From: Methylococcaceae bacterium UBA2780
GTDB taxonomy: Bacteria; Pseudomonadota; Gammaproteobacteria; Methylococcales; UBA2780
Length of the DNA stretch: 64,000 nucleotides
Reading direction: 5' to 3'
Assembly: GCA_002352345.1 (NCBI GenBank)
Contig: DEIG01000011.1
Coordinates: forward strand, 46,801-110,800
In this document: positions 8,444-58,950 of the stretch, in pieces
Layout of the letters: each line of letters starts with the position of its first letter
Position numbering within the stretch: the stretch's first letter is position 1
Notes under the pieces: generated by a model
What the model was told of the DNA's origin: nothing
Database searches by the model: none
What the model saw: the letters and a program-made list of their open reading frames with translations, nothing else
Position numbers and translations under genes: made by a program

Positions 8444-8470
8444 TGAAAATGAACAAGAGAAGAGATGAGG

Positions 8471-8884
8471 TTATTTTTCGGAAGAGCTGGTAGCAAAAGT
8501 GACATGAACAAAACCAATCTGACTCAGCGCATCAAGTGCAGTAATAACGGACTGATGTGATGTCTTACCATCCGCACTCACCACAACCTGTGGATCGTCA
8601 TTATCACCCGCTGCCTGACGTATGGCCTTTTTTAAGGTCTCTATATCAACATTGATAACCTGATGCTGATTTACATAAAACTGCCCTTTATCATCAATCG
8701 AAACAGTCAATGGCTCTGTGATAGTTGCCTCTTCACCGCTCGCCTCCGGCAATACAATCTGTAGCTGCGTTTCTCGATTAAACGTAGTCGTCACCATAAA
8801 AAATATCAGTAACAGAAAAACCACATCAATCATTGGCGTGATATTAATGTCTAATTTTTCCGGGATATTTTGGCGAAACTTCAT
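8471..8884 (-). CDS. ExbD/TolR family biopolymer transport protein
   Basis: 137 aa with a single N-terminal TM helix (INITPMIDVVFLLLIFFM motif). Overlaps the upstream ExbB-like gene by 4 nt. Confidence 0.85.
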   Translation of the reverse strand: MKFRQNIPEKLDINITPMIDVVFLLLIFFMVTTTFNRETQLQIVLPEASGEEATITEPLTVSIDDKGQFYVNQHQVINVDIETLKKAIRQAAGDNDDPQVVVSADGKTSHQSVITALDALSQIGFVHVTFATSSSEK

Positions 8885-9510
8885 TTTAGAGGGCCTTCAT
8901 CCGCTTCACGCTCACCATGCATCACCTCAATAAGCTTAAGCGCCTCTTCTTCCATCTTTAACACCAAGTCATTGATACGCCCTTGGAAATAACGATGAAA
9001 CATTAAACTTGGAATCGCCACAGTCAATCCGGCGGCCGTCGTCAAAAGTGCCTCTGAAATCCCCCCAGCTAAAACAGCAGGATTACCCACCCCACCAGCA
9101 ACAATTGCGGTAAAAACCTTAATCATCCCGATTACCGTTCCTAGCAGGCCCAAAAGTGGTGTAATTGAGGCGATTGTCCCCAAGCTATTCATAAATTTCT
9201 CAAGCTGATGAACCACCTGCCGGCCAGCCTCTTCAATACCCTCTTTCATCACCTCACGGCCGTGCTGCCGGTTAATCAGTCCTGCGGCTAAAATCTGGCC
9301 AAGAGGGGAGCTTGCTCTCAAAGTTCTAATATGAGCATTATCCAGCTGATTTTCCTTATAGAGATTCCAAACTTGAGGAACAAGCTGAAGCGGGATAATT
9401 TTTTTCGCATTCAACGTCCAAAAACGCTCCCCAACAATCGCCAAAGAGACAATGGAGCAGGCGATGATGGGGATCATCAACCATCCCCCAGCAAATATCA
9501 GTTCAAGCAC
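8881..9510 (-). CDS. MotA/TolQ/ExbB proton-channel family protein
   Basis: 209 aa with three TM helices and the conserved C-terminal GxxGTVxGMI / EAL.TTA.GL motifs. Confidence 0.85.
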   Translation of the reverse strand: MLELIFAGGWLMIPIIACSIVSLAIVGERFWTLNAKKIIPLQLVPQVWNLYKENQLDNAHIRTLRASSPLGQILAAGLINRQHGREVMKEGIEEAGRQVVHQLEKFMNSLGTIASITPLLGLLGTVIGMIKVFTAIVAGGVGNPAVLAGGISEALLTTAAGLTVAIPSLMFHRYFQGRINDLVLKMEEEALKLIEVMHGEREADEGPLK

Positions 9511-24193: not shown

Positions 24194-25525
24194 TTAGCGC
24201 TTTTCAAATAGCGCAATCGACTCAACATGCGCTGTATGCGGAAACATATCCATCACACCTGCTTTTATCAATTTAAAGCCTAATTCATGCACTAGGATAT
24301 CACTGTCTCTCGCCAAGGTAGAGGGGTTACATGAGACGTAAACAACCGTTTTAACGCCCAAAGCTGGTAGCTTTTCGATCACCTCTTTCGCACCCGCACG
24401 TGAAGGGTCTAGCAGAACTTTTGTAAATTTCTCTTTCGCCCAAGGCTGGCCTTTTAACTCTTTGAAAAGATCTGCCGCATAAAAGTGAACATTATCCAAC
24501 CCATTCTTTTTTGCATTCTCGGTTGCTCTTTTAACAAGAACATCACTGCCCTCAACTCCAACCACTTCACCCGCTTTTTTGGCAATCGGCAAGGTAAAAT
24601 TGCCTAATCCACAAAACAGATCAAGAATGCGATCTTCTGGGGTTGGGTTGAGCGTCTCAATAACCCGGCGAATCATTTTACGGTTTATTTCAGGGTTGAC
24701 CTGCGTGAAGTCGGTTGGCAAAAAAGAAAACTCAACCGATTCATCAGGCAGAGAGTAGCTCAGTTCAGGAACCGGCTGCCCATCCAGTGTCACAACGGTA
24801 TCTGGGCCTCCGCGTTGCAGGCAGATAGTGAAACCCTCCTGCTCTCCAAATGCTGACATTTTGAGTAGATCATCTGGTGTCACATCCTCCAGAATTCGAA
24901 ATACGAGAACAACGTGCGCTTCACCAACTGCCACCTCAATCTGGGGCAGTTTACTGCGAACAGACAGTGTTCCGATCAACTCAGAGAGTAGCTCTAACTT
25001 TTCTCCCACGGAGGGGTGAAGAACTGGGCAGCTTTTAATATCAGCAACAAAGGCACTCCGTTTCTCACGAAAGCCAACTAAAACACGCCCTTTCTTGTCG
25101 ACATTTTTAACACCCAGCCGAGCTTTATGGCGATAACCCCAAACGGGGCCCGTTAAGGGAGGCCAAAGCTCAAACTCTTCAATCTTGCCTATTCGCTTAA
25201 ACTGCTCCTGCAGGAGTGTCTGCTTCTCAAGAATCTGGTTTTCATCTGAAATATGTTGCCAGCTACAACCACCACACAGTCCAAAGTGTTCGCACTTCGG
25301 CTCAATTCTGATTGGGGAGCGGCTAAACAGCTTCTCAATACGTCCTTCGGCAAAATCTCTGCGCCTATCCGTATAGATAAAGGAGATTTTTTCACCCGGT
25401 AACGCACCATCAATAAAATGGACTTTGCCATCAAGGTGAGCCACCCCTTTCCCATCGTGGGAGAGCGATTCTATTTCTGCTTCAAATGGTTCTGTTGGGA
25501 GGTTTCTACGTCTTCTTCTTGCCAC
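24194..25525 (-). CDS. rlmD: 23S rRNA (uracil1939-C5)-methyltransferase
   Basis: 443 aa with an N-terminal TRAM domain, the Fe-S cysteines CEHFGLCGGCSWQH, the SAM motif DLFCGLGNF and a C-terminal catalytic Cys (VSCNP). Confidence 0.9.
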   Translation of the reverse strand: MARRRRRNLPTEPFEAEIESLSHDGKGVAHLDGKVHFIDGALPGEKISFIYTDRRRDFAEGRIEKLFSRSPIRIEPKCEHFGLCGGCSWQHISDENQILEKQTLLQEQFKRIGKIEEFELWPPLTGPVWGYRHKARLGVKNVDKKGRVLVGFREKRSAFVADIKSCPVLHPSVGEKLELLSELIGTLSVRSKLPQIEVAVGEAHVVLVFRILEDVTPDDLLKMSAFGEQEGFTICLQRGGPDTVVTLDGQPVPELSYSLPDESVEFSFLPTDFTQVNPEINRKMIRRVIETLNPTPEDRILDLFCGLGNFTLPIAKKAGEVVGVEGSDVLVKRATENAKKNGLDNVHFYAADLFKELKGQPWAKEKFTKVLLDPSRAGAKEVIEKLPALGVKTVVYVSCNPSTLARDSDILVHELGFKLIKAGVMDMFPHTAHVESIALFEKR

Positions 25526-25527
25526 AC

Positions 25528-26418
25528 TTATTCCGGAAATAGGTCAGTTGAGAGATACCGGTCACCCCGGTCACAAATAATGGCGACAATTATCGCATTC
25601 TCAACCTCTTTTGACAGCTCCAAAGCAGCAGAAACTGCCCCACCCGAAGAGGTTCCGGCAAAAATACCCTCTTTTGATGCAAGCGCGCGGGTTATCTCTT
25701 CTGCTGCCTCCTGAGTTACATCCATAATTCGATCAACACGAGTCGCATCATAAATCTTTGGCAGATAAGCTTTGGGCCAGCGGCGAATACCGGGGATCCC
25801 TGCCCCTTCGACTGGTTGAACACCTACAATTTCAATCTCACTATTCTGCTCTTTCAGGAACCTTGAAGTCCCCATTATTGTCCCTGTTGTTCCCATTGCG
25901 CTAACAAAGTGGGTGACACCTTCTTTTGTATCTCGCCAAATTTCTGGCCCCGTTCCTTCGTAGTGTGCCCTTGGGTTATCTAGGTTTGAGAACTGATCGA
26001 GAATCCGCCCAACGCCCTCCTTCTCCATCGCTCGCGCGCGATCAATCGCCCCCTCCATGCTTTCATCCTGGGGCGTTAAAATAATCTCTGCACCAAACGC
26101 CTTCATCACCGCTCGTCTTTCCACGCTCATATGTTCCGGCATCAACAAGATCATTTTGTAACCTTTAATTGCTGCGGCCATCGCAAGCGCAATACCTGTA
26201 TTACCACTCGTTGCCTCAATCAGGCAGTCACCCTCCTTGATCTCCCCCCTTGCCTCAGCATGCTGAATCATACTCAAAGCAGGACGGTCTTTGACTGAAC
26301 CGGCTGGATTATTCCCTTCCAATTTCACCAAAATCTGATTGTTTGTATTACCAGGGAGGCGCTGCAATCTCACCAATGGCGTATTGCCAACAAATGCCTC
26401 AATAGAAGGGAAGTTCAT
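25528..26418 (-). CDS. cysM: Cysteine synthase B
   Basis: 296 aa with the PLP-lysine motif NPAGSVKDRPA. Its size and adjacency to rlmD follow the known cysM-rumA arrangement. Confidence 0.88.
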   Translation of the reverse strand: MNFPSIEAFVGNTPLVRLQRLPGNTNNQILVKLEGNNPAGSVKDRPALSMIQHAEARGEIKEGDCLIEATSGNTGIALAMAAAIKGYKMILLMPEHMSVERRAVMKAFGAEIILTPQDESMEGAIDRARAMEKEGVGRILDQFSNLDNPRAHYEGTGPEIWRDTKEGVTHFVSAMGTTGTIMGTSRFLKEQNSEIEIVGVQPVEGAGIPGIRRWPKAYLPKIYDATRVDRIMDVTQEAAEEITRALASKEGIFAGTSSGGAVSAALELSKEVENAIIVAIICDRGDRYLSTDLFPE

Positions 26419-26531
26419 TTATGCTCCAAAAAACCGTTTGAAAAAGCCCATTGATCAATGCGTGAACAATAGATTTGGCCTGTGTTAGAATCGCTCAGGA
26501 TTTAATAAAAGTACCGATTTTATATTGCCGC

Positions 26532-28415
26532 GTGCTCAATAAAAAAGACAATAACAATTTTGCATATCTTATAGCGCTGGCATTCTCAGTTTTGCCCCAT
26601 TTTGCCTGTGCAAGTGAAGAACTTTTCGAGCCTAGCAGCTATTTTCTCGATGAAGTGCCAACGGTTCTTTCTGCAAACCGTCTTGCCACGCCACAAATTG
26701 AAGCACCTGCCGCAATGACTGTTATTGATAAGCGGTTAATTGAAGCTTCTGGTGCGAAAGAAATTACCGACCTCTTCAGGCTTGTTCCCGGCATGCAGGT
26801 TGGCCATTTTAGCGGCCATTTCCCAATCGTAAGCTACCATGGCATGTCTGATATTTTCTCTCGACGGATGCAGGTACTCGTCGATGGCAGCTCAGTCTAC
26901 CTTCCCTCCTCTGGTGGTATTTCATGGAGTGATCTACCTTGGCAGGTTGAAGATATAGAGCGTATCGAAGTGACCCGTGGCCCAGCAGCAGCAACGTATG
27001 GCCCCAACTCTTTTTTGGGCGTGATCAACATCATTACAACACATGCGTCACAGGATCAAGGAACAACACTGAAGGCTACTGGAGGCGAAAGAGGTTATCG
27101 CCGCACGCAGCTGCGAAATAGCAGTTCGAATGGAAAACTTGATTATCGCATTAACCTCACCTATCTAGAAGACGATGGCCTACCTCACGCATACGATAGT
27201 CAACGAACCAATAGCGTTAATAGTCGATTAGATTATCAATTAACACAGCAAGATGAACTGCTTTTAAATTTTGGCTATAGCGAAGGCCCTAGAGATTATC
27301 TATCTGCCGACGCATCACAAGAAAGAGAATCGTTTTACTCGAGCTTGAAATGGACGCATAGCAGCAGCCCTTCAGAGAAATTTTATCTCAACTTTATGTA
27401 CAGCTATAACAAGCTTGATCAACAAATTTTCAGCTCCAATAATGACCAACGAGCTGAACGGCTTGATGTAGAGTTTCAACATTCATTTTCGGCAACTTCT
27501 GATATTCGCCTCATCTGGGGTTTTGGGCTCAGAGAAGACAAAGCTATGGCACCACTGTGGCTAAACAGCAAAGAGAGCAAAGAGAGCGATTTACAGCGGT
27601 TATTTGCCAATACAGAATGGCATCTAACTGAAAAGTTAATCCTTAATATAGGAGCACTGGTAGAGCATAATTCTCTCACTGAAAGTGACTTCTCCCCTCG
27701 TGTTGCCCTCAATTATCTCTTCCTTCCTAACCACTCACTCCGCATAGTTGCTTCCAGCTCTACACGTACTCCTACCATTACAGAAGAACACCTCAACCAC
27801 ACATTTGGCCCGACCCCAATCACTGTAAGTACCGGCAACCTAGGCTCTGAAGAATCAAACTATTTTGAGTTCGGCTATCATGCTCAAACTCTAAATAACA
27901 GACTGTCAGGCGATCTTAAATTTTACAAACAGTCTTTCGACAACCTCATTAGCAGCAAACCGACTGCTCTCCTCCCACTCATTGTTGATAATAGGGATTC
28001 TGCCAATAACAAGGGGGTCGAGGCTGAAGTAAATTATCGCCCTTCACGCCAGACACTTTTCCATGGCGGTTTTTCGCATATCGATATCGATAGTCAGTCA
28101 GCGAACCCTGATTACAACCACTCTGCTCCAAGCACTGACTTTAACCTTCTCGCTTCAACCACTTTTAGAGACAATTGGCGAATTAGCGGAGCATTTTATT
28201 ATCGTGATGAAATGGAGTGGCTACGTTCAGAAAACCGCCTCGGAAGGTATCGCCGCCTCGACTTCACGCTCGCCAAAACAATCCGCCTATCTAATAAGGA
28301 GAAAATATCTATCGCGCTCACATTGCAAACTGCGCTTGATAAAAATGAGACATTTGTTGCTAACAATCACGAAGATAACCGTGGGTTTGTTGAAATAAGC
28401 TATCACGTCCAATGA
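26532..28415 (+). CDS. TonB-dependent receptor (paralog 1)
   Basis: A plug domain (LSANRLATPQIEAPAAMTVIDKRLIEASGA, RIEVTRGPAAATYGPNSF) is followed by a beta-barrel. The ORF track starts at TTG 26475, but an extended -10-like TGtTAGAAT at 26483-26491 lies inside that extension. I therefore prefer GTG 26532, which gives the signal peptide ...FSVLPHFACA/SEE. The start is uncertain. Confidence 0.85.
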   Translation: MLNKKDNNNFAYLIALAFSVLPHFACASEELFEPSSYFLDEVPTVLSANRLATPQIEAPAAMTVIDKRLIEASGAKEITDLFRLVPGMQVGHFSGHFPIVSYHGMSDIFSRRMQVLVDGSSVYLPSSGGISWSDLPWQVEDIERIEVTRGPAAATYGPNSFLGVINIITTHASQDQGTTLKATGGERGYRRTQLRNSSSNGKLDYRINLTYLEDDGLPHAYDSQRTNSVNSRLDYQLTQQDELLLNFGYSEGPRDYLSADASQERESFYSSLKWTHSSSPSEKFYLNFMYSYNKLDQQIFSSNNDQRAERLDVEFQHSFSATSDIRLIWGFGLREDKAMAPLWLNSKESKESDLQRLFANTEWHLTEKLILNIGALVEHNSLTESDFSPRVALNYLFLPNHSLRIVASSSTRTPTITEEHLNHTFGPTPITVSTGNLGSEESNYFEFGYHAQTLNNRLSGDLKFYKQSFDNLISSKPTALLPLIVDNRDSANNKGVEAEVNYRPSRQTLFHGGFSHIDIDSQSANPDYNHSAPSTDFNLLASTTFRDNWRISGAFYYRDEMEWLRSENRLGRYRRLDFTLAKTIRLSNKEKISIALTLQTALDKNETFVANNHEDNRGFVEISYHVQ

Positions 28416-30460
28416 TAAAAATAACGACAACAAATGAAGCCGCCATGAATCGCATTCAGCCCGTTTTTTATATAGCTTCTACGTTATTAAGTCTCTTGGC
28501 ACTGTTTTCATCCCCCATCTTTGCTGGCCACAGTAGCATTGAGGATCCTCTTGATAACTACTACCTCGATCAAATTCCCGTCGTTCTTTCTGCCACCCGC
28601 CTAAATCAACCGCAGCTGGAGGCTCCCGCTGCTGCCACCATTATTGACCGCGAGATGATTAAGGCTTCTGGCCTGAAAGAAGTTGCCGAGTTGTTTATGC
28701 TTGTTCCCGGTATGCAGGTTGCGCACACAAACGGTAATTACCCAGCAGTAACCTATCACGGCCTTTCAGATGAATATTCACGACGGATGCAGGTTCTAAT
28801 CGATGGAGGTTCAATGTATATCCCGACCGTTGGCGGTGTTCTTTGGAGCGACCTTCCACTACAAATAGAAGATATCGAACGTATCGAAGTGATCCGTGGC
28901 CCCAATGCGGCAAGCTTTGGGCCAAACTCTTTTCTTGGCGTAATTAATATCATCACAGCCCATGCTTCTCAGGACAGCGGGCTCATGGTTAAAGCAACAA
29001 AAGGTGAAAGGGGCTACAACAAACTGTTGTTGCGCCAGGCTGGCTCTAATGGTGACCTCGATTACCGTCTGAATGGCTCATATTTGGAGGATGGCGGCCT
29101 CTCAACACTTCACGACAGCCAGAGAACAAACAGTTTTAATGGCCGGATAGATTATCGCGCAACAGCGCACGATACCTTTCAACTAAACTTTGGCGTTAGT
29201 GAGGGGCCAAGAGAAAAAGGAAATGATGAATTGCCTCATCATAGCCAACAAAGGAGCGCTTTTTACCAAAGCCTGCGCTGGGAGCACCAGAAAAACAGGA
29301 ATGAAAACTTCACACTAAAATTCCTTTATAACTACAGCGATACTTCGGGCAGTTATTTCGATGATTTTGGTAGTGGCGGAGTAATTACAGCCAATATAGA
29401 TGACTCTAGAAAAGCAGAAAGGTTTGACTTGGAGTTTCAACATACTTCGAAACCGAGTGAGCACACCCGTTTTATCTGGGGCCTAGGTGCTCGTCATGAC
29501 CGTGTGAGAATGCCTCTATGGCTTAATCAGAAAGATTATGAAAGCAACATCATGCAGCGGGTTTTTGCCAATTTTGAGTGGCATATTTTCGATAACTTAA
29601 TTCTCAATAGCGGAACACTATACGAAAAAAATAGTATCGTAGCGCCTGAGTGGTCTCCAAGAGTTGCATTAAATTATCTTTTTTTACCAACACAATCCTT
29701 CCGCTTAATCGCCTCACGCTCGCACCGAACACCTGATATTACTGAAAAAGAGTTAAATGTTGTAGTTCACACAAATATTGAAGATGATCAGCAATTTAAA
29801 TCGCTAAACAAGCCAAAATCAGAACGAGCAGATTACATTGAATTTGGATATCACGGAATTTTTCTAGAAAATAGATTAAATGCTGATTTTAAAGTCTATC
29901 GGCAGACGTTCCATGAATTAATCACCAAACAAAATAAAGCGTACATCTGTACTGATGGCACAGTCTTACCCACAGCAACCTGCCCACCTGGAAGCATCCT
30001 CAACCCAAACGGTGATGAATTTGACCCTTACGGAAACCTCGACTCTGCCACTACTGAAGGATATGAATTAGAGCTTAATTACCACCCTACGCGCCGCACA
30101 CTCATCCATGCCGGCTACAGTAAAATAAAAATTTTCAGTAAAGATACAGAGGAAGATATCAGTGAATCAGCCCCAACGGATAGCTTCAATTTATTAATCT
30201 CCCAAAAATTAGCTAATCACTGGCAAATCAGCAGTGCCTTTTATTACAGAAGCGAAATGGAATGGCTGCTCTCTGGGGGCCAACTAGATGACTATAAACG
30301 AATCGATTTCACGCTTTCAAAAATGTTCAGGCTTTCCGAAAAAGAAGAGCTAACACTCTCTTTTACCATGCAAACTGCCCTAGATAAGAATGAAGAATTT
30401 AGCGATGACAATGAGTTCGATAACCGTGGGTTTTTAGAAATTGAATATCAACTTCAATAA
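28412..30460 (+). CDS. TonB-dependent receptor (paralog 2)
   Basis: 682 aa, colinear with paralog 1 (LSATRLNQPQLEAPAAATIIDREMIKASGL, RIEVIRGPNAASFGPNSF, the same C-terminal ...NRGF.EI.Y..Q). Its start overlaps the upstream stop (ATGA). An alternative start is Met12 (MNRIQ). Confidence 0.85.
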   Translation: MIKITTTNEAAMNRIQPVFYIASTLLSLLALFSSPIFAGHSSIEDPLDNYYLDQIPVVLSATRLNQPQLEAPAAATIIDREMIKASGLKEVAELFMLVPGMQVAHTNGNYPAVTYHGLSDEYSRRMQVLIDGGSMYIPTVGGVLWSDLPLQIEDIERIEVIRGPNAASFGPNSFLGVINIITAHASQDSGLMVKATKGERGYNKLLLRQAGSNGDLDYRLNGSYLEDGGLSTLHDSQRTNSFNGRIDYRATAHDTFQLNFGVSEGPREKGNDELPHHSQQRSAFYQSLRWEHQKNRNENFTLKFLYNYSDTSGSYFDDFGSGGVITANIDDSRKAERFDLEFQHTSKPSEHTRFIWGLGARHDRVRMPLWLNQKDYESNIMQRVFANFEWHIFDNLILNSGTLYEKNSIVAPEWSPRVALNYLFLPTQSFRLIASRSHRTPDITEKELNVVVHTNIEDDQQFKSLNKPKSERADYIEFGYHGIFLENRLNADFKVYRQTFHELITKQNKAYICTDGTVLPTATCPPGSILNPNGDEFDPYGNLDSATTEGYELELNYHPTRRTLIHAGYSKIKIFSKDTEEDISESAPTDSFNLLISQKLANHWQISSAFYYRSEMEWLLSGGQLDDYKRIDFTLSKMFRLSEKEELTLSFTMQTALDKNEEFSDDNEFDNRGFLEIEYQLQ

Positions 30461-30501
30461 CTAACTTTATAACTAATCAATGACTTTCAACAAAAACAGC
30501 G

Positions 30502-31491
30502 ATGAACATGGACGTTCAACAGAGACAGCAACAAATTAAAGAGGGAAGCCTCTCTGCTAGAAACTATCATTTTTTTATGATGATGGTTGCTGCTTTCAGC
30601 TTTCTACTTTTCTCATCCGCTAGTCTGGCAGAAAAACTGATGATTATCGGCGATATAAATCAACCCATTCACCAGCAACTCATCAACGGACTGAAAAAAG
30701 AGTTCTCGCAAGCGCCTAATAGCTTAACCGTCGCGCACCCAAACCAAATTACTAAGAACTACTCACCAGTAGCTAAAGCAGAACTGATAATCTCTTTAGG
30801 GCTGTCCGCTGCAAAATCCACGAATAATTTAACATCAGATACACCGATTTTTTATACGCTTTTACCTAAATCACTAGCCAACCGCTTCATCGACTGTGTA
30901 GCACAAACCTGCACACAGAAAAGGAGCGCTCTGTTCCTAGATCAGCCTGTGGCCCGACAGCTTAACCTTATCAAACTGATTTTCCCTGAGGTAAAACAGA
31001 TATCGTTCCTTTACGGTGACTTTTCAGCCACTTCTGCCAAAGAACTCAGCAAACTTTCAAAACGCTCAGGCTACGAAACACATAGTGCCCATGTTAAAAA
31101 TGGAGACGAGCTCTCCAGAAAATTGAATCAACTTTTACAAGAGTCTGAGCTCTTCATCGCACTACCCGACCCCCTCATTCATAATCGTCAATCAATCCCG
31201 CAGCTTTTACTGAGCACCTACCGGCACAATATTCCAATTTTTGGTTTCTCGAAATCTTACGTTTCAGCTGGCGCCATTGCCGCTGTCTTTTCTAGCACGA
31301 ACGATCTAATTCAAGAACTCATTTCCACCATTAAAACCCATGAAAAAAGTGGCCAACTACCCAGAGGAGGGAGCTATCCAAGCCAATATCGTGTAGAAGT
31401 GAACAGGGATGTAGCTCGCAGCATGAATCTACATACCCCCCCGCCAACCCAGCTGCATAATGGACTGTTAGAGCTAGAAGCAGGTTCATGA
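30502..31491 (+). CDS. Periplasmic ABC-type substrate-binding-like protein (COG2984/PF04392-like)
   Basis: 329 aa with a signal peptide (MMMVAAFSFLLFSSASLA). The overall pattern, including IPIFGFSKSYVSAGAIAAV, resembles the uncharacterised ABC_sub_bind family. No ABC permease or ATPase gene is adjacent. Confidence 0.5.
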   Translation: MNMDVQQRQQQIKEGSLSARNYHFFMMMVAAFSFLLFSSASLAEKLMIIGDINQPIHQQLINGLKKEFSQAPNSLTVAHPNQITKNYSPVAKAELIISLGLSAAKSTNNLTSDTPIFYTLLPKSLANRFIDCVAQTCTQKRSALFLDQPVARQLNLIKLIFPEVKQISFLYGDFSATSAKELSKLSKRSGYETHSAHVKNGDELSRKLNQLLQESELFIALPDPLIHNRQSIPQLLLSTYRHNIPIFGFSKSYVSAGAIAAVFSSTNDLIQELISTIKTHEKSGQLPRGGSYPSQYRVEVNRDVARSMNLHTPPPTQLHNGLLELEAGS

Positions 31492-34208
31492 GACTTCCAC
31501 AAGGCATTCGGTTTCAACTATTAATACTAGTTGTTCTTCCCGCGTCGATATTGGCATTTAGCCTAACTTTTTGGTTTGTTCAAACACGTATTGATGAGCT
31601 CGATAAGACACTATCTGAGCGAGGGGAAATTATTGTAAAAAACCTTTCTCCAGCCTCTTTATATGGAATATTTTCTGGGAGCGACTATCTCCTTCAACGG
31701 TTAACTGACAGCATTATTCTAGAATCAGACGTTGTTGATGTTTCTATTTTCAACAAAAAAGGTCAACGTCGCGCCTACTCAAAAAAAACGAATCCCCGCG
31801 ACAACACTCCAGTTAATGAGCTTTCCTATTTTAGCCATCCCATTAAGTTATCCATTTTAGAAAATGTAGAGAATGACCCTCTCTCTTCACTCATCGATAT
31901 TTCAAAAGAAAACAGACAAATTGTTGGTGAAGTCAGAGTCACATTGTCTCGAGCAGGTACATTAGAAAGCCAGAGAGAGATTATTTGCACGAGCATAATC
32001 ATTACAGGCTTAGGCCTCCTAATTAGCCTTCTATTCGCCTACAGGATCTCCAGAGGAATTAGTGACCCCATTCTAGCGCTAACCAACACAGTAAATCAGG
32101 TTTCCAAAGGTGACCTTTCTATTCGCAGCAATATTAATGCGCTGAAAGAGCTGAATGAGCTAAAACAGGGATTGAATGTTATGGCTGAATCCCTAGAAGA
32201 AAATCAAACACAACTAAAATCCAAAATTAAATCTGCGACCCTTGATTTGAACCATTCCCTCCATGTACTGGAAAGCAAAAATAGACAGCTCAACCAAACA
32301 CGTCAACAAGCAGAAGAGTCCAGCAGGCAAAAATCTCTATTTCTTGCGCACATGAGCCATGAAATACGCACCCCAATGAATGGTATATTAGGGTTTCTAC
32401 AGATTTTAGGTGACAGCTCTCTCTCTCCAGCCCAATCAAGCCAGCTGCAACTCATTGAAACATCAGCCAGTAATCTGCTCACTATCATCAATGAAATCCT
32501 TGATCACGCCGAACTCGAATCAGGCAACCTTAAACTCACCTTTTCTAGTTTTGATCTTCGGCAATCAATCGAGGAGACAGTCGCTCTATTGGCACCGTTA
32601 GCGCACAAAAAGAGGCTCAAGCTCGTTGTATTAATTGATGAAGCAGCCCCCAATCTTTTATACAGCGACCCCATTCGCCTGCGGCAAATTCTATTTAATT
32701 TAATCGGGAATGCTATTAAGTTCGCTCCATCAGGAGAGATAATTATTCGCCTGAGAATGCAAAATAGTTCATTACTGTTCACAGTCTCTGACAACGGCCC
32801 AGGTATCCCCTATAAAGAGCAACAAAACCTCTTTGCTCCGTTTACTCAAATTGATACAGCTGAAGAGTTTCCACCACCAGGCACTGGGTTAGGGCTCAAT
32901 ATTGCTCAAAGCATCGTCCATGCACTCGATGGGGAAATAGGGTTCGCCAGCAAAGAGACTTATGGCACAACATTTTGGTTCACGCTTCCTCTGGGAAATA
33001 GTGATCAAAAACCTGCCGAGAAAAAGGCTCAAGCTACCCCACCTCAACATGCTCAACCAAAGCAGGTTCTATTGTTTGACAAAAACAGACTCACCCAACG
33101 CGCGATCCACCAACAACTAGCTTCAATCGGGGTAATTTCCACAGAGATCAACTTGGAAGGGCTAAAAAAAATAGCTTTTGATAATGAGCTAAACAGCTAC
33201 GACTGCATTATTTTGAATGGTGACAACAACCAATCCATAGAAAACCTGGAAAATCACTTACCAATTTTGACCTTGTCATACACCTCCCTAAAAAACAGAA
33301 ACTTATCCAACACAGGTCGCCACTTACAATTACCTTGCACCCAAACAGCTCTCCTAGAGGCGCTCATAAACTCACCTAACAGACAAGAGCCATACCAATC
33401 TCAAGCTCATGAGTTAAAAATTGAGCGCAGTAACCCGCAACCTCTAAAATTTCTAGTTGCGGATGATATTGAGATTAATCGTCTACTCCTAATCGAGCAG
33501 ATTAAACGACACTGGAATGCCTCTATTGTTGAAGCAGAAGATGGGGAAGAGGCTCTCAAGACACTAAAGAGGCAAGCTTTTGATCTAGTATTTCTTGATC
33601 TACGGATGCCTAAAAAAAGTGGCCTGTCTGCTTTAAAAAGCTTAATGGCTACGCCTGGAGCCTTAAATCAAGAAACCCCTTTTATTGCTATCACCGCCTA
33701 CCTTCCAGAAGATTCTACAGAAGAGTTAATTACGGCAGGATTCTCAAAAATCATCTTAAAACCGTCTTCAGAAAAAGATTTAGTAAAAACCGTCAATAAG
33801 CTGCTAAAACTCAATAACAAACCACCTCGCCAATCTGGTTCACCCCCCCCCATCTCACAAATTGAAGAGCGCTCATTTTTTGACCGTCTGATGATTAAGG
33901 TAGGTGGAAACCAAAAACTTGCCTTCTCACTGCTCAGGAAACTAAATGAGGATTTGCCCCAGCAGTTAGAAGTTGCTCAGCAAGCTTTTAAAGGTGGTGA
34001 CTTAAACGAGACCAAAGAAGCTGTACACAAAATCCATGGTACAGCCCGCTATTTTGAAATGTCTGAATTAATTAAACAGGCAAACGAACTTGAAACTACT
34101 CTAACTAAAGCAGATCTTGAAAGTGCAACTGCACTGTTTCCCCTTTTCGAAAAAGAAACAGTGCAGTTTATTGTGTTGAACCAGAAGACTATACAAAAAC
34201 CTTCTTAA
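31488..34208 (+). CDS. Hybrid sensor histidine kinase (periplasmic domain-HAMP-HisKA-HATPase-pseudoREC-REC-HPt)
   Basis: 906 aa. Two TM helices flank a roughly 140-aa periplasmic segment. Motifs: H-box HMSHEIRTPMNG; N/G boxes NLIGNAIKF, DNGPGIP, GTGLGLNIA; receiver LVFLDLRMPKKSG; C-terminal HPt HKIHGTARYF. Its start overlaps the upstream stop. Confidence 0.9.
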   Translation: MRLPQGIRFQLLILVVLPASILAFSLTFWFVQTRIDELDKTLSERGEIIVKNLSPASLYGIFSGSDYLLQRLTDSIILESDVVDVSIFNKKGQRRAYSKKTNPRDNTPVNELSYFSHPIKLSILENVENDPLSSLIDISKENRQIVGEVRVTLSRAGTLESQREIICTSIIITGLGLLISLLFAYRISRGISDPILALTNTVNQVSKGDLSIRSNINALKELNELKQGLNVMAESLEENQTQLKSKIKSATLDLNHSLHVLESKNRQLNQTRQQAEESSRQKSLFLAHMSHEIRTPMNGILGFLQILGDSSLSPAQSSQLQLIETSASNLLTIINEILDHAELESGNLKLTFSSFDLRQSIEETVALLAPLAHKKRLKLVVLIDEAAPNLLYSDPIRLRQILFNLIGNAIKFAPSGEIIIRLRMQNSSLLFTVSDNGPGIPYKEQQNLFAPFTQIDTAEEFPPPGTGLGLNIAQSIVHALDGEIGFASKETYGTTFWFTLPLGNSDQKPAEKKAQATPPQHAQPKQVLLFDKNRLTQRAIHQQLASIGVISTEINLEGLKKIAFDNELNSYDCIILNGDNNQSIENLENHLPILTLSYTSLKNRNLSNTGRHLQLPCTQTALLEALINSPNRQEPYQSQAHELKIERSNPQPLKFLVADDIEINRLLLIEQIKRHWNASIVEAEDGEEALKTLKRQAFDLVFLDLRMPKKSGLSALKSLMATPGALNQETPFIAITAYLPEDSTEELITAGFSKIILKPSSEKDLVKTVNKLLKLNNKPPRQSGSPPPISQIEERSFFDRLMIKVGGNQKLAFSLLRKLNEDLPQQLEVAQQAFKGGDLNETKEAVHKIHGTARYFEMSELIKQANELETTLTKADLESATALFPLFEKETVQFIVLNQKTIQKPS

Positions 34209-34228: not shown

Positions 34229-36730
34229 CTAGCCCTTCATACCATCCATAAGCGACTGAGCCTCTGCCTTTTGCTCATCACTTCCTTGCGCCATGATTTC
34301 TTGAAGAATCTCCTTTGCTGCATCCTCATCTTCCATATCCACATAGGCTTTAGCGAGATCCAGCTTTGTCTCAACTTCATCCATATCGGTCAAACTTGCA
34401 GCAATGTCGTCTCCCAAATCAAGATCAGGACTCTCTTCTTCAACCTTAGATTCAGACTTCTCCTCTTCTTCAGGAGAGATCATTTCAAAATCAAAACTAA
34501 AGCCATCATTTTCTTCTTCGGCCTGCTCACTGCTCTCTTCAGCTTTTAATTCCTCAGCCTCTTCCTTAACCTCTGACTCTGAAAGATCAAAATCCACCTC
34601 TGAGGCTTCCTCTCCACCCATCTCAGCACTAAAGTCGATTAGGTTATCGTCATGTTCATCAGTAGAACCGGATGCCGCCTCTCCATCAGCCAGATTAACG
34701 TCAACGTCACCGGCCTCTAATTCAGGTAGCTCAAGAGATTCTTCTGTAATAGAAGCATCAACAGCTAATTCATCATTAACCTCTTCTACCTCTTCAAGAG
34801 GGAATGGATCATTACCTTCTTCGGAGGAAAGCTCATCAGAGAGCGTTTCATCTTCGGCAAACAAAGTATCCTGCGTCTCTTCCTGCTCACTCTGAAAGAG
34901 AGCCTCTTCTGGGCACATGTCTTGGCCCATCTCTACCGCCCTCAACCACAAATCAGAGTCAGAGCCTGCAACGTCAGCATGAATCTCTTTTGCTAACGAG
35001 AGGAAAGCATTTTTATCTTCAGTGGCAAAATGTATTTCGAGCAACTTAAGTTTGTACTCTTCATTTGCAGGATCATTCTCAATGGCCTGGCGCACCAAAT
35101 CTTCTGCCTGCTGATAGCGGCCGTACGCAAGGTAAACATCCGCCTCGGTGATTGGATCGACTTCATCATTATCACTTTCGAGCGTATCAAAATCGCTAGG
35201 TGTAAACTCGCTCAAAAAAGAGCTTTCAGCAGGAATACCGGCTTCACTCTCGCTGCTATCGACAACGGGGGCAATCAATTCATCACTTGGGGCCTGCTGA
35301 TCATCCGTTGCAACCAAAATACTTTCTGCAGCGGTAAAATCTTCCTCAAGAGCCTGCTTGCGGCGTCTTGCAATAGCAACAATCGCAAGAACAAGTATAC
35401 CAACCCCTCCCAACCCAAGATAAACAGGGTCCTCATAAAATGGTGTTTCTTGAGCAGGTGGAGGGCTTTCGGCATCTGTTTTTTCTACTTCGGGTTCAGA
35501 TTTAGGAACCTCCGCAACAATATCCGCACTTGGCTCACTGTTTTCAACCACCTCAGTTACTGCCTTATCAGCAATCACCGCTTCACTTTCTTGGTTATCT
35601 TGCAACGCTGCAAGTTGCTCGTCTTTTAATACAAGCAACCTCTGCATTGTCGATACCTGCTCTTCAAGAGCAGCCATTCGCTTCTGGATATCTTCATTTT
35701 CCTGGCGTACAGTCTCGGAAATCTCAATGGCTTTGTCAGCCACAGATGCGGCACTATTACCGCCCGCACCCGAATCTTGATCGGCAAGCCCAGAGGCACT
35801 CAGCGCCTCCTCATCTGTTGGCGACATCAGCGTTAGTTGGCCCGCATCCTGCTCCTTATCCGAAGGCAGCAACAGCTCTTCCGTTATCTTCTTTTGTTTA
35901 GAAGATTCAACATCTGAAACCAAAGCAGGAACTTTTGCAGTCCAGATTTTGTAGTGATCAGAAAACTCCCTCCTCGCTTCATGCCTAGTTAACCGCCGAG
36001 CCTCTTCGCTCGTTGGAACGGCTAATGTTTGCCCTCTTTTTAAAGCGTTAACATTCTTCTTGTAAAAGGCCTCTGGGTTTTTCTTGTACAGCGCCATCAT
36101 CATCTGCTCTTGAGAGACAGATGAGTCACCATTAACCTCTGTAGCAACAGCCCAAAGCGTGTCATTTTTTTTAGTCGGGCCGTATTCTGCCCCAGCCGAA
36201 TTACTGCCTGAGCGCCCTGAGTACGACGAAGAGTAACTACTCTCTACACTACGTTTTATCGAAGATGGTTTTTCAGCCGAGCGGCGAACTGCTGGTGCTT
36301 TTTGTATGGCAGTTTCTGTTTCTCTTAATGTGACAGGGGGATCTAGAAGAACTGTAAACTCCTTCAGTGCCCGCCCTTGAGGCCAGTTCACCTCAACTAG
36401 AAAGTTTAAAAATGGTTCTCGAATAATATCATGCGAGGTCACCTTAACAGAAAGGGATCCATCTGCCATGACAACAGGCTTAAAGCGAATATTTGAAAGA
36501 TAAAAGTAACGTTCAACTCCCGCACGCTTAAAAGCTTCTGGTGAGGCCAAAGTGACCTTAATGTCAGAAGATGATTCAGAGCGTGAGGCAACCAATGCTA
36601 TTTTTGCATTTAGTGGCTGATTCAAAGCCGAATGCAGTTCAATATCACCAACCCCTAAGGCAGCAACTCCCATTGGCGCCAAAAAGGTTGCTGCTGCCAA
36701 TGTTTTAGGTAGTCTCTTCACTTTATTCAT
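34229..36730 (-). CDS. fimV: FimV/HubP-family polar organising protein
   Basis: Features: signal sequence, conserved N-terminal LNQPLNAKIAL block, LysM-like segment (YGPTKKNDTLWAVA), single TM (YLGLGGVGILVLAIVAIA), very acidic cytoplasmic half, TPR-like repeats, and a FimV C-terminal motif (LDLAKAYVDMEDEDAAKEILQEIM). It is adjacent to an asd-family gene, as in Pseudomonas. I place the start at ATG 36730, directly preceded by GGAGGA, not at 36763. Confidence 0.85.
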   Translation of the reverse strand: MNKVKRLPKTLAAATFLAPMGVAALGVGDIELHSALNQPLNAKIALVASRSESSSDIKVTLASPEAFKRAGVERYFYLSNIRFKPVVMADGSLSVKVTSHDIIREPFLNFLVEVNWPQGRALKEFTVLLDPPVTLRETETAIQKAPAVRRSAEKPSSIKRSVESSYSSSYSGRSGSNSAGAEYGPTKKNDTLWAVATEVNGDSSVSQEQMMMALYKKNPEAFYKKNVNALKRGQTLAVPTSEEARRLTRHEARREFSDHYKIWTAKVPALVSDVESSKQKKITEELLLPSDKEQDAGQLTLMSPTDEEALSASGLADQDSGAGGNSAASVADKAIEISETVRQENEDIQKRMAALEEQVSTMQRLLVLKDEQLAALQDNQESEAVIADKAVTEVVENSEPSADIVAEVPKSEPEVEKTDAESPPPAQETPFYEDPVYLGLGGVGILVLAIVAIARRRKQALEEDFTAAESILVATDDQQAPSDELIAPVVDSSESEAGIPAESSFLSEFTPSDFDTLESDNDEVDPITEADVYLAYGRYQQAEDLVRQAIENDPANEEYKLKLLEIHFATEDKNAFLSLAKEIHADVAGSDSDLWLRAVEMGQDMCPEEALFQSEQEETQDTLFAEDETLSDELSSEEGNDPFPLEEVEEVNDELAVDASITEESLELPELEAGDVDVNLADGEAASGSTDEHDDNLIDFSAEMGGEEASEVDFDLSESEVKEEAEELKAEESSEQAEEENDGFSFDFEMISPEEEEKSESKVEEESPDLDLGDDIAASLTDMDEVETKLDLAKAYVDMEDEDAAKEILQEIMAQGSDEQKAEAQSLMDGMKG

Positions 36731-36809
36731 TCCTCCAGAAATCGAAGCTTTCCTTCGTCCCACAAATTAAAATCCAGCCCATCAGGGCAAATAGTCTCTT
36801 CAGACTAGT

Positions 36810-38765: not shown

Positions 38766-40187
38766 TCAGGCAGCAAACTGCTCAGCCATCATATCCAAGT
38801 CACCTCGCTTCTCAAGCAATGTCTCAACCGTTTCCTCAACTTTTACGGCATCAAGTCCAACACGCTCACATAACATAGAAAGATCACCCTCACCGCGATC
38901 ATCACCAATTTCATACCGCCCTAAAATGTGATTAATAACAGCAATTAAAGCAGGATAGCCTTCGTGTTCCCCACTATAATCGAAGTTATGGTGCTCTTTA
39001 ACTGTTACGGTTACCTCAGATGGCATTTCCCAAGATTGCATGAGCCAACCACCCAGCTCTGCATGCCCCATTCCCAGCACATGCTGCGCATGCCCCATTC
39101 CCAGCGCGTGTTTCTCTAGCATAACAATGCTCGCTTCAGGATTCGCTGCCACCATTTTATTCAGTAAAAAGAACTCCGGCTGGAATAGATGCCCTAATAG
39201 TAAAAAGCCAAAGTTATGTAACAACCCGGCGAGATAAGCCATTCCTGGCTTTATTTCGTACTGGTCCGGCACCTGCTTGGATAAAGCTTGAGCTAGTGCA
39301 GCCGTATAAGTCGCATGTTTCCAGAAAGCACGAAGCCCCAGCGGACCATCCGGTGGATTGCGTAAAGCCCCCCCTGCAGCAAGGCCAAGCGCCATATTCA
39401 TCACAACATCAAAGCCCAACACTCTAGAAATAGCGCTCTTAATCGAATCGAGCTCCCCTCTGAAACCAAAAAATGATGAATTTGCGTACCTCATCACCTG
39501 TGCTGAAAGAGAGGGATCAATTTCAACAATCTCAGCTAACTTCTGAGCATCAGAATTCGGATCATTTCTAAGCTTTATGATTTGAATAGCCATCTCTGGC
39601 ATTGCGGGTAATTTATAGAGCTTTTCTAGTCGCTTTTTTGCATCCACTGCCGGCGTAAGCGGTGCAGCGTCAAGAGATAGCTCATCGAAATCACCAGCTT
39701 TCAACTGAACACTATCATCACTGCAACTAATTGTTTTGACACATCTATCTTCACAAAGCATCAAGAAATTTTTAGTCGGCAGCTCAACAAGATTAAGGCC
39801 CGCTCCACCTTCAAAAAAGACGCTATCGAGCTCTTTAACCGACTCATCCAACAACATTTCAAGTCGATATGCCTTAGCTAAAGGAGGAATCGTCGCCTCA
39901 GCACAATCGGGAAAATAGCTGCTTGCATGGCTAATGGGCAAAGGTGAGAATTGATATCCCGTCTCTCGCTCGATTGCTTGAAAATTAATGAGCCGGTTAA
40001 AAGGCAAAACCACCAACAGAACCTTACCTTCTGGTTCTCTCAGCAAGACACCTCTCAATACATTTTTTTTAGGTAAATCTAAAGTACTGACAATTCGCGC
40101 TAAACCTGCACCACGCTCATGCGCATGGAGTTTACAAGCTATCGGAAGTCTCTTTAGCTCTGTTTCGACCGTTTTTGATAGTGCCAT
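38766..40187 (-). CDS. YbaK/aminoacyl-tRNA-deacylase-like domain fused to HDOD domain
   Basis: The N-terminal ~170 aa resemble the YbaK/ProX editing fold. The C-terminal ~280 aa are a typical HDOD domain (LPAMPEMAIQIIKLRNDPNSDAQKLAEIVEIDPSLSAQVMRYANSSFFG). I place the start at ATG 40187 (MALSKT), not 40262. Confidence 0.7.
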   Translation of the reverse strand: MALSKTVETELKRLPIACKLHAHERGAGLARIVSTLDLPKKNVLRGVLLREPEGKVLLVVLPFNRLINFQAIERETGYQFSPLPISHASSYFPDCAEATIPPLAKAYRLEMLLDESVKELDSVFFEGGAGLNLVELPTKNFLMLCEDRCVKTISCSDDSVQLKAGDFDELSLDAAPLTPAVDAKKRLEKLYKLPAMPEMAIQIIKLRNDPNSDAQKLAEIVEIDPSLSAQVMRYANSSFFGFRGELDSIKSAISRVLGFDVVMNMALGLAAGGALRNPPDGPLGLRAFWKHATYTAALAQALSKQVPDQYEIKPGMAYLAGLLHNFGFLLLGHLFQPEFFLLNKMVAANPEASIVMLEKHALGMGHAQHVLGMGHAELGGWLMQSWEMPSEVTVTVKEHHNFDYSGEHEGYPALIAVINHILGRYEIGDDRGEGDLSMLCERVGLDAVKVEETVETLLEKRGDLDMMAEQFAA

Positions 40188-40323
40188 CTGCCATCCCCAC
40201 CAATTCTCTGGATTACGACAATAGTAGACCTGCAAAACAATTAAAAGTGCGCCTTTTATCACACAAAGAAAATTTAATGGCTGGCACCTTCACCAATCTA
40301 GTCAATCTTAGTAAAACTCATTG

Positions 40324-50568: not shown

Positions 50569-52272
50569 ATGTATGAACCGACTTTAGGTGCTGAACCTAG
50601 CGCTGAGTTGCCTTTTAAGCTGACGACATCGGCCATTTCTGAGTGGATTGACCAGCTACCTGTCTTAAACACGGTACACTCAGCAGAAAAGATCTACCGA
50701 GTGTTACAGTCTCTTTCTGACCTAGAAATAGAGCCAGCACTTCGGTTTCAACTCCTTGAATGTTTGAATGGGACAGCCTGCCTGCTATCCAACACTCTAG
50801 AAAAACATTTTCTGGATGCCTCCTTTCCTCTTCCTAAAAAAGAGCAAAAGCTAGCTAAGCTTTCAACACATTTGCACAGAGAGCTTACTTCCAACTACGC
50901 CATAATTACAAAAAGTGAGCCGTTTCTTGGTTCAGGTAACTTTGCTCCCTCTCAGATCAGAGCTACTGTTGGGCATGCCCTGTATTCTTTGTCTCAAGAG
51001 CAGCTTCTAATCGCTCAGCGCTATGAAGCCTGTTCAACTCGGTTTTGGACACAATTTTACGAGCTTCTTGCCTTAGTAGAACAATTAGATATTCGGCCCC
51101 TAGATAACTCAAAAGAGAACTCTATCGACCTACTAATAAAGAGGATTCTCCTTTTCTCTATATCAAACCCAAACCGCTTTTCACAGCGTGAAATCAAAGA
51201 GCTCTACTCACTCTTTAAGTTGCATGCAGAATTGGCACAGCTAGATAATCATCCCTCCAACAACCAATCTAAAAAAGCCGGATTCTTTATCGAGCTGGGG
51301 TATTTTCAGCCACCTCGGCACATAAGCCGAATAACGCCAGATTCTTCTGTCTCAACGCTAAGGTACATCCATACTAATGACTTAGTTGAGTATCTTATTG
51401 ACCAATTCAAAGCTCTGCTCAATACAGATAATGGCAACTGTCTGTTCTCCAGCAAACGAATGCTAGGGAAAGTTGTAAGAAGTCTAGGCGCTCCTGAACG
51501 GCGAAAAAACCCAAGACTCCAAAGTGAATCGCCAGCATGCACGGTTATCCCAGGCCTTGAAAACATCATCTCTTTTCTCTCAAATCCTGACAGCGCAGGA
51601 AAAACGAAAGAGGCTATTAAACCTGTACGCGCCAGTGAGCTTTGGAATGATATCCCTGACTTTGACATCATTCCATTAGACACAAACAACCTCCAGACTA
51701 ATGCATTTAGTAATAATGAGCACGGTGAAAGTATTGCACACTCAGCGCTTACAAAGTCAAAGAGCATGATTGCAAGCACTGACATTTGGGGCAAAAAACC
51801 ACTATCACGCCCTGAACTAAAAATAAAAAATCTTGACTGCAAGATATTAGATATCAGCACTAAAGGCTTCCACCTGCTCTGGATAAAAGAGGCGAATGCA
51901 AACATAAAAGTTAGCGAAATAATTTCTATATCACAAGCTGGACAGCCCATGAAAACAGGGGTTGTCCGCTGGATTGAAAATGACAGGCGGTCAGGACTCT
52001 CATTCGGAATAGAGCTACTCTCACCAGTCACTCAAATTGTAACCGCAAGCTCTCCCAAACAGCCTGACTCTGAAATAAAAGGCCTGTTAATACCAGAACT
52101 ACCCGAGAAAAACATCCAGCAAAGCATTCTAGTTTCCCCTTCAAAATACAAAACGGGTGGTTGGGTTGACCTTAAAGGGAAAACAGTCTCTAAACGCTAC
52201 CGACTACAAAAGCTGCTCGAGACCTCACCATCATTTAACCAATTTTCCCTATTTAAACTGGACAATAGCTAG
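50569..52272 (+). CDS. Hypothetical protein with C-terminal PilZ-like domain
   Basis: 567 aa. The N-terminal ~400 aa are helical and I recognise no family. The C-terminal ~110 aa have the PilZ DxSxxG motif (DISTKG, nt 51850-51867) and beta-barrel-like periodicity. The upstream RxxxR element is non-canonical (SRPELK). Confidence 0.6.
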   Translation: MYEPTLGAEPSAELPFKLTTSAISEWIDQLPVLNTVHSAEKIYRVLQSLSDLEIEPALRFQLLECLNGTACLLSNTLEKHFLDASFPLPKKEQKLAKLSTHLHRELTSNYAIITKSEPFLGSGNFAPSQIRATVGHALYSLSQEQLLIAQRYEACSTRFWTQFYELLALVEQLDIRPLDNSKENSIDLLIKRILLFSISNPNRFSQREIKELYSLFKLHAELAQLDNHPSNNQSKKAGFFIELGYFQPPRHISRITPDSSVSTLRYIHTNDLVEYLIDQFKALLNTDNGNCLFSSKRMLGKVVRSLGAPERRKNPRLQSESPACTVIPGLENIISFLSNPDSAGKTKEAIKPVRASELWNDIPDFDIIPLDTNNLQTNAFSNNEHGESIAHSALTKSKSMIASTDIWGKKPLSRPELKIKNLDCKILDISTKGFHLLWIKEANANIKVSEIISISQAGQPMKTGVVRWIENDRRSGLSFGIELLSPVTQIVTASSPKQPDSEIKGLLIPELPEKNIQQSILVSPSKYKTGGWVDLKGKTVSKRYRLQKLLETSPSFNQFSLFKLDNS

Positions 52273-52315
52273 AGAGTTACAGAGAATGAGGTGAACAAAA
52301 GGAAAATGTCTACCC

Positions 52316-58028: not shown

Positions 58029-58173
58029 TTATTCCTCCGGGAATACTATTTTTTATTTATCTAAGCTCTTTGGGGGTGACCCTGACGAGTCCACCTAAAA
58101 AGCTATTTTGATCAGTGCTGATCTTAAGCCAGCTATCTGTTTAAAACTTGTTAGTGCTGCAAGGAAAAAATTC

Positions 58174-58920: not shown

Positions 58921-58950
58921 CTTATTCTCTCCGTAATCTGATAAGGCTGC

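Follow-up and report, generated by a model that had tools for sequence, protein, structure and literature searches.

The 64,000-nt stretch of contig DEIG01000011.1 analysed here (the window; positions 46,801 to 110,800 of the forward strand, assembly GCA_002352345.1, Methylococcaceae bacterium UBA2780) carries a block of four plus-strand genes that encode two TonB-dependent receptors (TBDRs), a periplasmic binding protein of Pfam family PF04392 and a sensor kinase that aligns with BarA over nearly its full length. The pairing of such a binding protein with a sCache_4 sensor, often with a receptor gene in the same string, is conserved in Gamma- and Betaproteobacteria. The genes of the block are:

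26532..28415, plus strand: TonB-dependent receptor 1 (TBDR1), Plug and 22-strand-type barrel; its open reading frame (ORF) extends at most to TTG 26475
28412..30460, plus strand: TonB-dependent receptor 2 (TBDR2), paralogue of TBDR1, Plug and barrel
30502..31491, plus strand: PF04392 periplasmic binding protein of a divergent subfamily, with signal peptide
31488..34208, plus strand: BarA/GacS-type sensor kinase of 906 aa, sCache_4-HAMP-HisKA-HATPase_c-Response_reg-Hpt (Pfam)

A sequence-only reading had described this block (26475-34208) as four co-directional genes that are joined by an ATGA overlap (28412-28415), a 41-nt gap and a 4-nt overlap (31488-31491) and that end 20 nt from the convergent fimV stop. 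All of this can be read in the sequence: the ORFs are 26475-28415, 28412-30460, 30502-31491 and 31488-34208, both overlaps read ATGA, the gap between TBDR2 and the binding-protein gene is 30461-30501, and the kinase and fimV stops lie at 34208 and 34229. Pfam agrees with the domain calls (TBDR, TBDR, PF04392-like, histidine kinase) for all four proteins. Position 26475 holds as the upper bound of the TBDR1 ORF and not as its start. Gene callers use GTG 26532, which gives the receptor a normal signal peptide, and a promoter-like site overlaps TTG 26475; GTG 26532 is most likely the true start.

The kinase aligns with Escherichia coli BarA at 28% identity over 890 columns (E 5e-94), from residue 7 to 855, and the alignment includes the periplasmic part and the pseudo-receiver region. 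Its top NCBIfam model is BarA (NF008318), matched over positions 5-889 of 920 with 505.7 bits; LetS (NF045901) is second with 399 bits, against a cut-off of 1650. The predicted topology is TM1 (~5-33), a periplasmic sCache_4 domain (~34-162), TM2 (~163-188) and then HAMP, and hydrophobicity places the two membrane segments at 5-33 and 163-188, flanking the ~130-aa sCache_4 region (Pfam E-values 6e-7 for sCache_4 and 6e-8 for HAMP). This sensory domain was absent from the domain list of the sequence-only reading.

The phospho-acceptor residues of the kinase are all present: His291 (HEIRTP), Asp704 (FLDLRMP) and His847 (HKIHG). Between the ATPase domain and the receiver (650-775) lies a pseudo-receiver (~520-648), as had been proposed: residues 520-648, as a profile built on 33 homologues, match the true receiver with 95.5% probability (E 1.6e-8), and the region has no Asp or Lys at the positions aligned to the phospho-Asp and the conserved Lys. 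The solved structure closest to the catalytic core is 7z8n (E 2e-66), which we take to be GacS of Pseudomonas aeruginosa. BarA, GacS, LetS and VarS have the same architecture of sCache_4 (DUF2222), HAMP, HisKA-HATPase, receiver and HPt.

The gene neighbourhood points in the same direction. The block is flanked upstream by divergent rlmD and cysM and downstream by convergent fimV and asd. Further features that bear on the block are:

24194-25525, minus strand: rlmD (NCBIfam RlmD, 574 bits, above cut-off)
25528-26418, minus strand: cysM (NCBIfam CysM, 520 bits, above cut-off)
26463..26491, plus strand: promoter-like site in the divergent intergenic region between cysM and TBDR1 (TGAACA-17-TAGAAT with TG, consensus match)
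8471..9510, minus strand: exbD/exbB pair (Pfam ExbD and MotA_ExbB on called genes)

In E. coli, barA is divergent from rlmD-relA. BarA/GacS-type kinases normally have their regulator (UvrY/GacA) encoded elsewhere and act through it on Csr/Rsm small RNAs; neither such a regulator nor such an RNA was found in the window, where no search was aimed at them. A lone kinase is thus expected rather than odd, and the earlier label 'orphan hybrid kinase' is misleading, as the kinase is a BarA/GacS counterpart. In the non-enteric Gammaproteobacteria P. aeruginosa, Cellvibrio japonicus and Hahella chejuensis, cysM occurs with ygcA (rlmD), relA and gacS (PMC12800425), so that rlmD and cysM at the window locus match the barA/gacS synteny of E. 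coli and Pseudomonas. The sCache_4 domain is the renamed DUF2222, the sensory module of BarA/GacS/VarA kinases, and is nearly confined to histidine kinases (705/713; PMC4822843). Because of the full-length BarA alignment, the sCache_4 architecture and the rlmD/cysM position, we regard the kinase, on sequence grounds, as the positional and architectural counterpart of BarA/GacS, with the same neighbours and likewise no adjacent regulator.

The binding protein has a signal peptide (...SASLA/EK) with an A-x-A site and no lipobox. It matches PF04392 with 47.8 bits (gathering score 25.9), covering only part of the model, and reaches 52 bits on the TrpX model, whose cut-off is 390. An AlphaFold (AF2) model built from 28 sequences has a two-lobe fold (pLDDT 88). 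Its best PDB matches in Foldseek are VC_1101 (3lkv), SP1069 (3lft) and CD0873 (6hni/6hnj), at E ~1e-15, and it is nearest to the open form (6hnj, TMq 0.66). All three serve ABC importers, and their ligands are Phe, Trp and Tyr.

TrpX, CD0873 and VC_1101 share fold and Pfam family with the window protein, which differs from them in having no adjacent permease or ATPase and in its altered selectivity positions. A profile alignment to 3lkv indicates that both aromatic-selectivity positions have changed: Ala246 of VC_1101 corresponds to Ser250, and Tyr262 is lost. Ser250 is invariant or near-invariant within the GFS motif of the subfamily, whose motifs are DQPxxRQ, LPDP (followed by LIHN in closer relatives) and GFSxxYVxAGAIAA. 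The LPDPLIHN motif contains a 2-residue insertion relative to TrpX, CD0873 and VC_1101, and closer relatives of the window protein have a Cys-x4-Cys pair. The polar residues Gln148, Arg152, Asp223, Asn228 and Ser250 show little or no variation across the subfamily alignments, which would fit a retained binding site. In its annotated parts (about 2.5-62 kb), the window showed no matching ABC importer. The protein appears to represent a divergent PF04392 subfamily that has no transporter partner. We also considered naming the ligand from the Trp-, Tyr- and Phe-binding relatives and rejected this, as the comparison shows only that the selectivity residues differ.

The two receptors are 50% identical to each other, and TBDR1 matches Plug and barrel in Pfam with E-values of 5e-20 and 5e-29. 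The best NCBIfam family of both is TOL_0244 (NF053590), with 229 and 196 bits against a cut-off of 645, and their sequences place them in a sister subfamily of TOL_0244 and not among its members. Two receptors occur only in the window's own lineage (L004, binding protein 60% identical) and in L086; most relatives have one, and the pair appears to be a lineage-specific duplication. Neither receptor has an N-terminal signalling extension: both consist only of Plug and barrel, with Plug beginning, past the signal peptide, at about residue 70. Their neighbourhood has no sigma or anti-sigma gene. Cell-surface signalling of the FecA type through a sigma factor of the extracytoplasmic function (ECF) class needs such an extension and a sigma/anti-sigma pair, both of which are missing at the block. 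The receptors end in ...Y-H-V-Q (28401-28412) and ...Y-Q-L-Q (30446-30457), not in the usual terminal aromatic of outer-membrane barrels.

The domains of the neighbouring genes bear out the earlier statement that the block has no ABC, TonB/ExbBD, sigma/anti-sigma or response-regulator gene as a direct neighbour. The exbB and exbD genes lie inside the window, yet 17 kb away. They are a possible energy source for the receptors by a conjectural link to the block. They form a string with lpxK (7439-9510, minus strand; exbD ~8471-8884, exbB 8881-9510). Of a TonB system, this pair is all that was recognised in the window.

Scans of species-representative genomes and metagenome contigs yielded about 90 non-redundant loci that encode relatives of the binding protein. 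The locus scan was built on 12 closer binding-protein sequences, and the window proteins were then mapped on all ORFs of the loci. We counted a locus as informative for a downstream sensor if it had at least 600 nt beyond the binding-protein gene (76 loci). A membrane sensor of the sCache_4-HAMP type directly follows the binding-protein gene in 56 of these 76, and a TBDR gene lies directly upstream in 40 of the 50 sensor-coupled loci with enough DNA. Co-conservation of the neighbourhood, on which the sequence-only reading had staked its proposal, thus holds. When the binding proteins are clustered at 50% identity, 21 clusters result; the sensor is found in 17, the receptor in 13, both in 11, and the sensor together with cysM in 6.

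The N-terminus of the downstream sensors matches the window kinase from about residue 6. All ten downstream sensors that were scanned contain HAMP, and nine have a Pfam sCache_4 match; the sensor of a Sedimenticolaceae locus (L014) has no sCache_4 at E <= 0.001, yet matches the window kinase from residue 7. The coupling is tight: the stop of the binding-protein gene and the start of the sensor gene overlap by 4 nt in 41 of 64 cases and by any length in 52, and no gap exceeds 11 nt. Of 97 loci, 6 have an ABC ATPase- or permease-like ORF within 5 kb, and none has one as an immediate neighbour. An EYG-x-F periplasmic motif of the coupled sensors was considered as a mark of binding-protein dependence and discarded, as its EYG part is also present in E. 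coli BarA.

The output domains behind this sensor module vary. Sensors of 920-975 aa with HisKA-HATPase-REC-HPt (L014, L034, L092, L102) are found on many gammaproteobacterial contigs. Hybrid kinases with HisKA-HATPase-REC and no HPt (L008, L011, L074, L105) occur in Gallionella and other Betaproteobacteria, including the cultured Rhodoferax antarcticus (L105). Three further loci (L015, L091, L093) carry GGDEF-EAL outputs behind sCache_4-HAMP, and a Rhodocyclaceae genome (L104) has the permuted order regulator / kinase-receptor-binding protein. What the binding protein follows from locus to locus is the sensor module, whatever the output domain, and this is the strongest argument for a partnership.

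The receptors and the genomic position recur as well. The best family of four receptors tested from related loci is again TOL_0244 (188-231 bits, below cut-off, as for the two in the window), and a single receptor subfamily across the loci is suggested by this shared best match. Of 34 informative loci, 23 have cysM beside the cluster and 22 have rlmD there; one further cysM case, missed by the filter, has cysM directly against the binding-protein gene (L030). In Betaproteobacteria the arrangement also occurs away from cysM.

In R. antarcticus (L105, 4921-10436) and the Rhodocyclaceae metagenome-assembled genome (L104, 5260-10939) the cassette has an adjacent REC-GerE regulator gene, which in R. 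antarcticus is convergent with the kinase gene. In L105 the kinase core most resembles NahK/ErcS and the regulator most resembles ErdR, a hint that the downstream pathway of R. antarcticus is other than GacA/Rsm. A homologue of the binding protein is also carried by R. saidenbachensis.

We propose that the barA/gacS-locus gene for a global sensor kinase has here been joined to a dedicated sensory front end. One or both TonB-dependent receptors, powered by a TonB-ExbBD system encoded elsewhere, would carry a ligand over the outer membrane. The transporter-less PF04392 protein would capture it in the periplasm, and the loaded binding protein would dock on the sCache_4 domain of the kinase and shift its kinase/phosphatase balance. 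Phosphate would then pass from His291 to Asp704 to His847 and on to a UvrY/GacA-type regulator encoded elsewhere. We give a probability of roughly 0.65 to the central claim, that the binding protein is a functional partner of the sensor and the receptor supplies its ligand. Within the proposed chain the receptor is the weaker step. Co-transcription, import, binding, docking and the downstream regulator are all inferred from the genes. The sequence-only reading had already suggested a co-sensor of the LuxP-LuxQ or TorT-TorS kind; the conserved pairing with the sensor and the absence of adjacent ABC genes fit this suggestion, which is therefore partly supported. A broader version is tentative, and we put it at slightly less than even odds: receptor, PF04392 protein and sCache_4-HAMP could form a portable cassette that serves GacS-type phosphorelays, shorter hybrid kinases and c-di-GMP enzymes, in which sCache_4 would sense the complex of binding protein and ligand and not the free ligand.

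Several observations weigh against the proposed partnership. Outside the lineage of the window itself, the nearest relatives of the binding protein form a solo clade of Methylococcaceae-like genomes, including Methylomarinum sp. Ch1-1, in which the binding protein (33-39% identical) is encoded without sensor or receptor. As this clade keeps the binding protein alone, linkage to a sensor or receptor is not obligatory. At its locus E. coli barA has neither a binding-protein nor a receptor gene, unlike the window; to our knowledge, other BarA/GacS loci of model organisms also have no such gene beside the kinase, and we know of no requirement for a binding-protein partner in either E. coli BarA or Pseudomonas GacS, so that sCache_4 can do without a binding protein. 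The kinase scores under the equivalog cut-off of NF008318 (506 vs 890 bits) and is, by this measure, a divergent BarA family member and not the NCBI-defined equivalog. Ten of the 50 sensor-coupled loci have no upstream receptor, and no tonB was identified in the 64-kb window. The start/stop overlaps suggest one transcript; a scan for promoters and terminators, with counts no better than shuffles, adds nothing for or against it. Many of the loci come from one sample series (Ga03162xx), a bias that clustering lessens.

The genomic setting of the solo clade is itself distinctive. The solo binding-protein gene usually overlaps the start of minC, which is followed by minD and minE, and no sensor, receptor or ABC gene was found near these minC-linked genes (L003 10001-11711, L099 8001-10912, L101 1671-4582). 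The overlap is 4 nt in L099-L101, and L003 has a 58-nt gap. We see no obvious reason to couple a periplasmic binding protein with genes for cell-division site selection.

The solo clade, which shows the gene living away from sensors, also feeds the best-surviving alternative: the receptors and the binding protein could be a nutrient-uptake pair for a distant ABC importer that lies beside the kinase through shared regulation or because the intergenic site is permissive. The PF04392 proteins of solved structure are indeed ABC-importer binding proteins for Trp, Tyr or Phe. The window protein departs from them at the selectivity positions (Ala246 to Ser in the GFS motif, Tyr262 lost) and scores far under the TrpX cut-off. 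Such an uptake role would also leave unexplained why the pairing follows the sCache_4 module through three output types and one permutation of gene order, why start/stop overlap is the rule, and why ABC genes are adjacent in none of the 97 loci. We consider this alternative unlikely.

A little less probable still is that the binding-protein-like component modulates the sensor independently of any ligand, inhibiting or stabilising it as in the pairs ExoR-ExoS, CpxP-CpxA or YfiR-YfiN, and that the receptor is unrelated to signal entry. Conserved pairing and tight coupling would suit any stoichiometric partner, and the canonical ligand-selectivity residues are not kept. This reading is at odds with the confidently predicted two-lobe fold, which is similar to a genuine binder in its open form (6hnj), and with the near-invariant polar residues, which may mark a retained binding site. 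The co-conservation of the receptor subfamily in 40 of 50 loci would also be hard to explain without an imported ligand.

The block had earlier been judged by eye to be more AT-rich than its flanks. This is true (42.8% GC vs 45.0% in the rest of the window), but the effect is marginal. The GC contents of the four genes are 0.5 to 1.9 standard deviations under the mean of the other 41 genes, their GC3 and codon usage fall inside the range of those genes, and the nearby asd and fliL-like genes are even lower in GC. Because GC, GC3 and codon-usage distances are unremarkable, we see no signal of recent foreign origin, and we rejected a foreign origin of the block. That the block is a chance or recent insertion between cysM and gacS, or an islet acquired horizontally, and has no link to the kinase is very improbable: this reading could draw on the 2.2-point GC difference and on the presumed presence of the unrelated pirR-pirS-pirA between gacS and cysM in P. 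aeruginosa, a sign that the site tolerates insertions, but base composition and codon usage inside the normal spread, the recurrence of the arrangement by cysM-rlmD in 23 of 34 informative loci, in L030 and in six clusters at 50% identity, and its occurrence away from cysM in Betaproteobacteria leave it largely refuted.

Other parts of the window may also be tied to signalling. The region 56802-59424 (minus strand) looks like a second transporter-less binding-protein signalling cluster. Here a Phosphonate-bd protein (58174-58920) is flanked by a FIST/FIST_C protein (56802-58028) on one side and a PAS protein (58951-59424) on the other, and a Robl_LC7 gene lies farther on. A kinase with a binding-protein partner of the Phosphonate-bd family is known from AioX-AioS. 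On the plus strand (50569-54382), a FimW_N/FimW_C protein is followed 43 nt on by a GGDEF-EAL protein. Together with fimV (34229-36763), this suggests a c-di-GMP/type IV pilus polarity neighbourhood. A called gene of 473 aa (38766-40262, minus strand) combines tRNA_edit (YbaK-like) and HDOD domains, which is unusual.

BarA/GacS kinases switch the lifestyles of Gammaproteobacteria, including virulence, biofilm and secondary metabolism. A dedicated binding protein and receptor would provide an experimental handle on the signal that their periplasmic domain detects, namely a 30-kDa soluble protein for ligand screening. If the broader version of the proposal is true, a ligand screen of this small soluble protein could reveal what a whole branch of BarA/GacS-family sensors responds to. 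Its occurrence with both kinase and c-di-GMP outputs shows that the front end behaves as an exchangeable module, and the existence of a cultured carrier (R. antarcticus) makes the idea open to experiment.

The kind of system proposed here is already known, both as binding-protein-dependent kinases and c-di-GMP enzymes and as periplasmic sensing after TonB-dependent import. For the latter, PfeA-PfeS/PfeR and PirA-PirS/PirR of Pseudomonas and the SusC/D hybrid sensors of Bacteroides combine import by a TBDR with two-component detection and use no sigma/anti-sigma pair. They are not known to have a free binding protein between receptor and sensor, and their kinases are not of the BarA/GacS type; in Bacteroides BT1754 the binding protein is fused to the sensor. 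LuxP-LuxQ and TorT-TorS resemble the window in that the gene for a hybrid kinase adjoins one for a periplasmic binding protein that has no transporter. The sensor domains differ (dCache-like, LuxQ-periplasm, in LuxQ and a helical bundle in TorS, sCache_4 in the window kinase), and the window adds an upstream outer-membrane receptor to its proposed system. The binding proteins differ as well, LuxP and TorT belonging to Peripla_BP_4 or Peripla_BP_1 and the window protein to PF04392 (PMC8050422). In NspS-MbaA and ScrB-ScrC a binding protein controls a GGDEF-EAL enzyme, as gene order suggests for the relatives L015, L091 and L093; the families of binding protein and sensor domain are different ones, and the window has the kinase version.

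The genes of kinase-stimulating binding proteins typically lie together with signalling genes (PMC8050422), and our pairing argument follows the same logic that identified NspS-MbaA and LuxP-LuxQ. The same 2021 review of binding-protein-dependent receptors lists none for the BarA/GacS family and contains neither PF04392 nor sCache_4 (PMC8050422). We found no report of a PF04392/sCache_4 pairing, or of a GacS/binding-protein/TonB-dependent one, in the searchable literature, which leaves out most subscription journals. Within this literature and the 2021 catalogue, and as far as these show, three elements are new: the pairing of PF04392 with the sCache_4 family, its attachment to a BarA/GacS-type global regulator kinase at a conserved locus, and the regular presence of a receptor in the same gene string.

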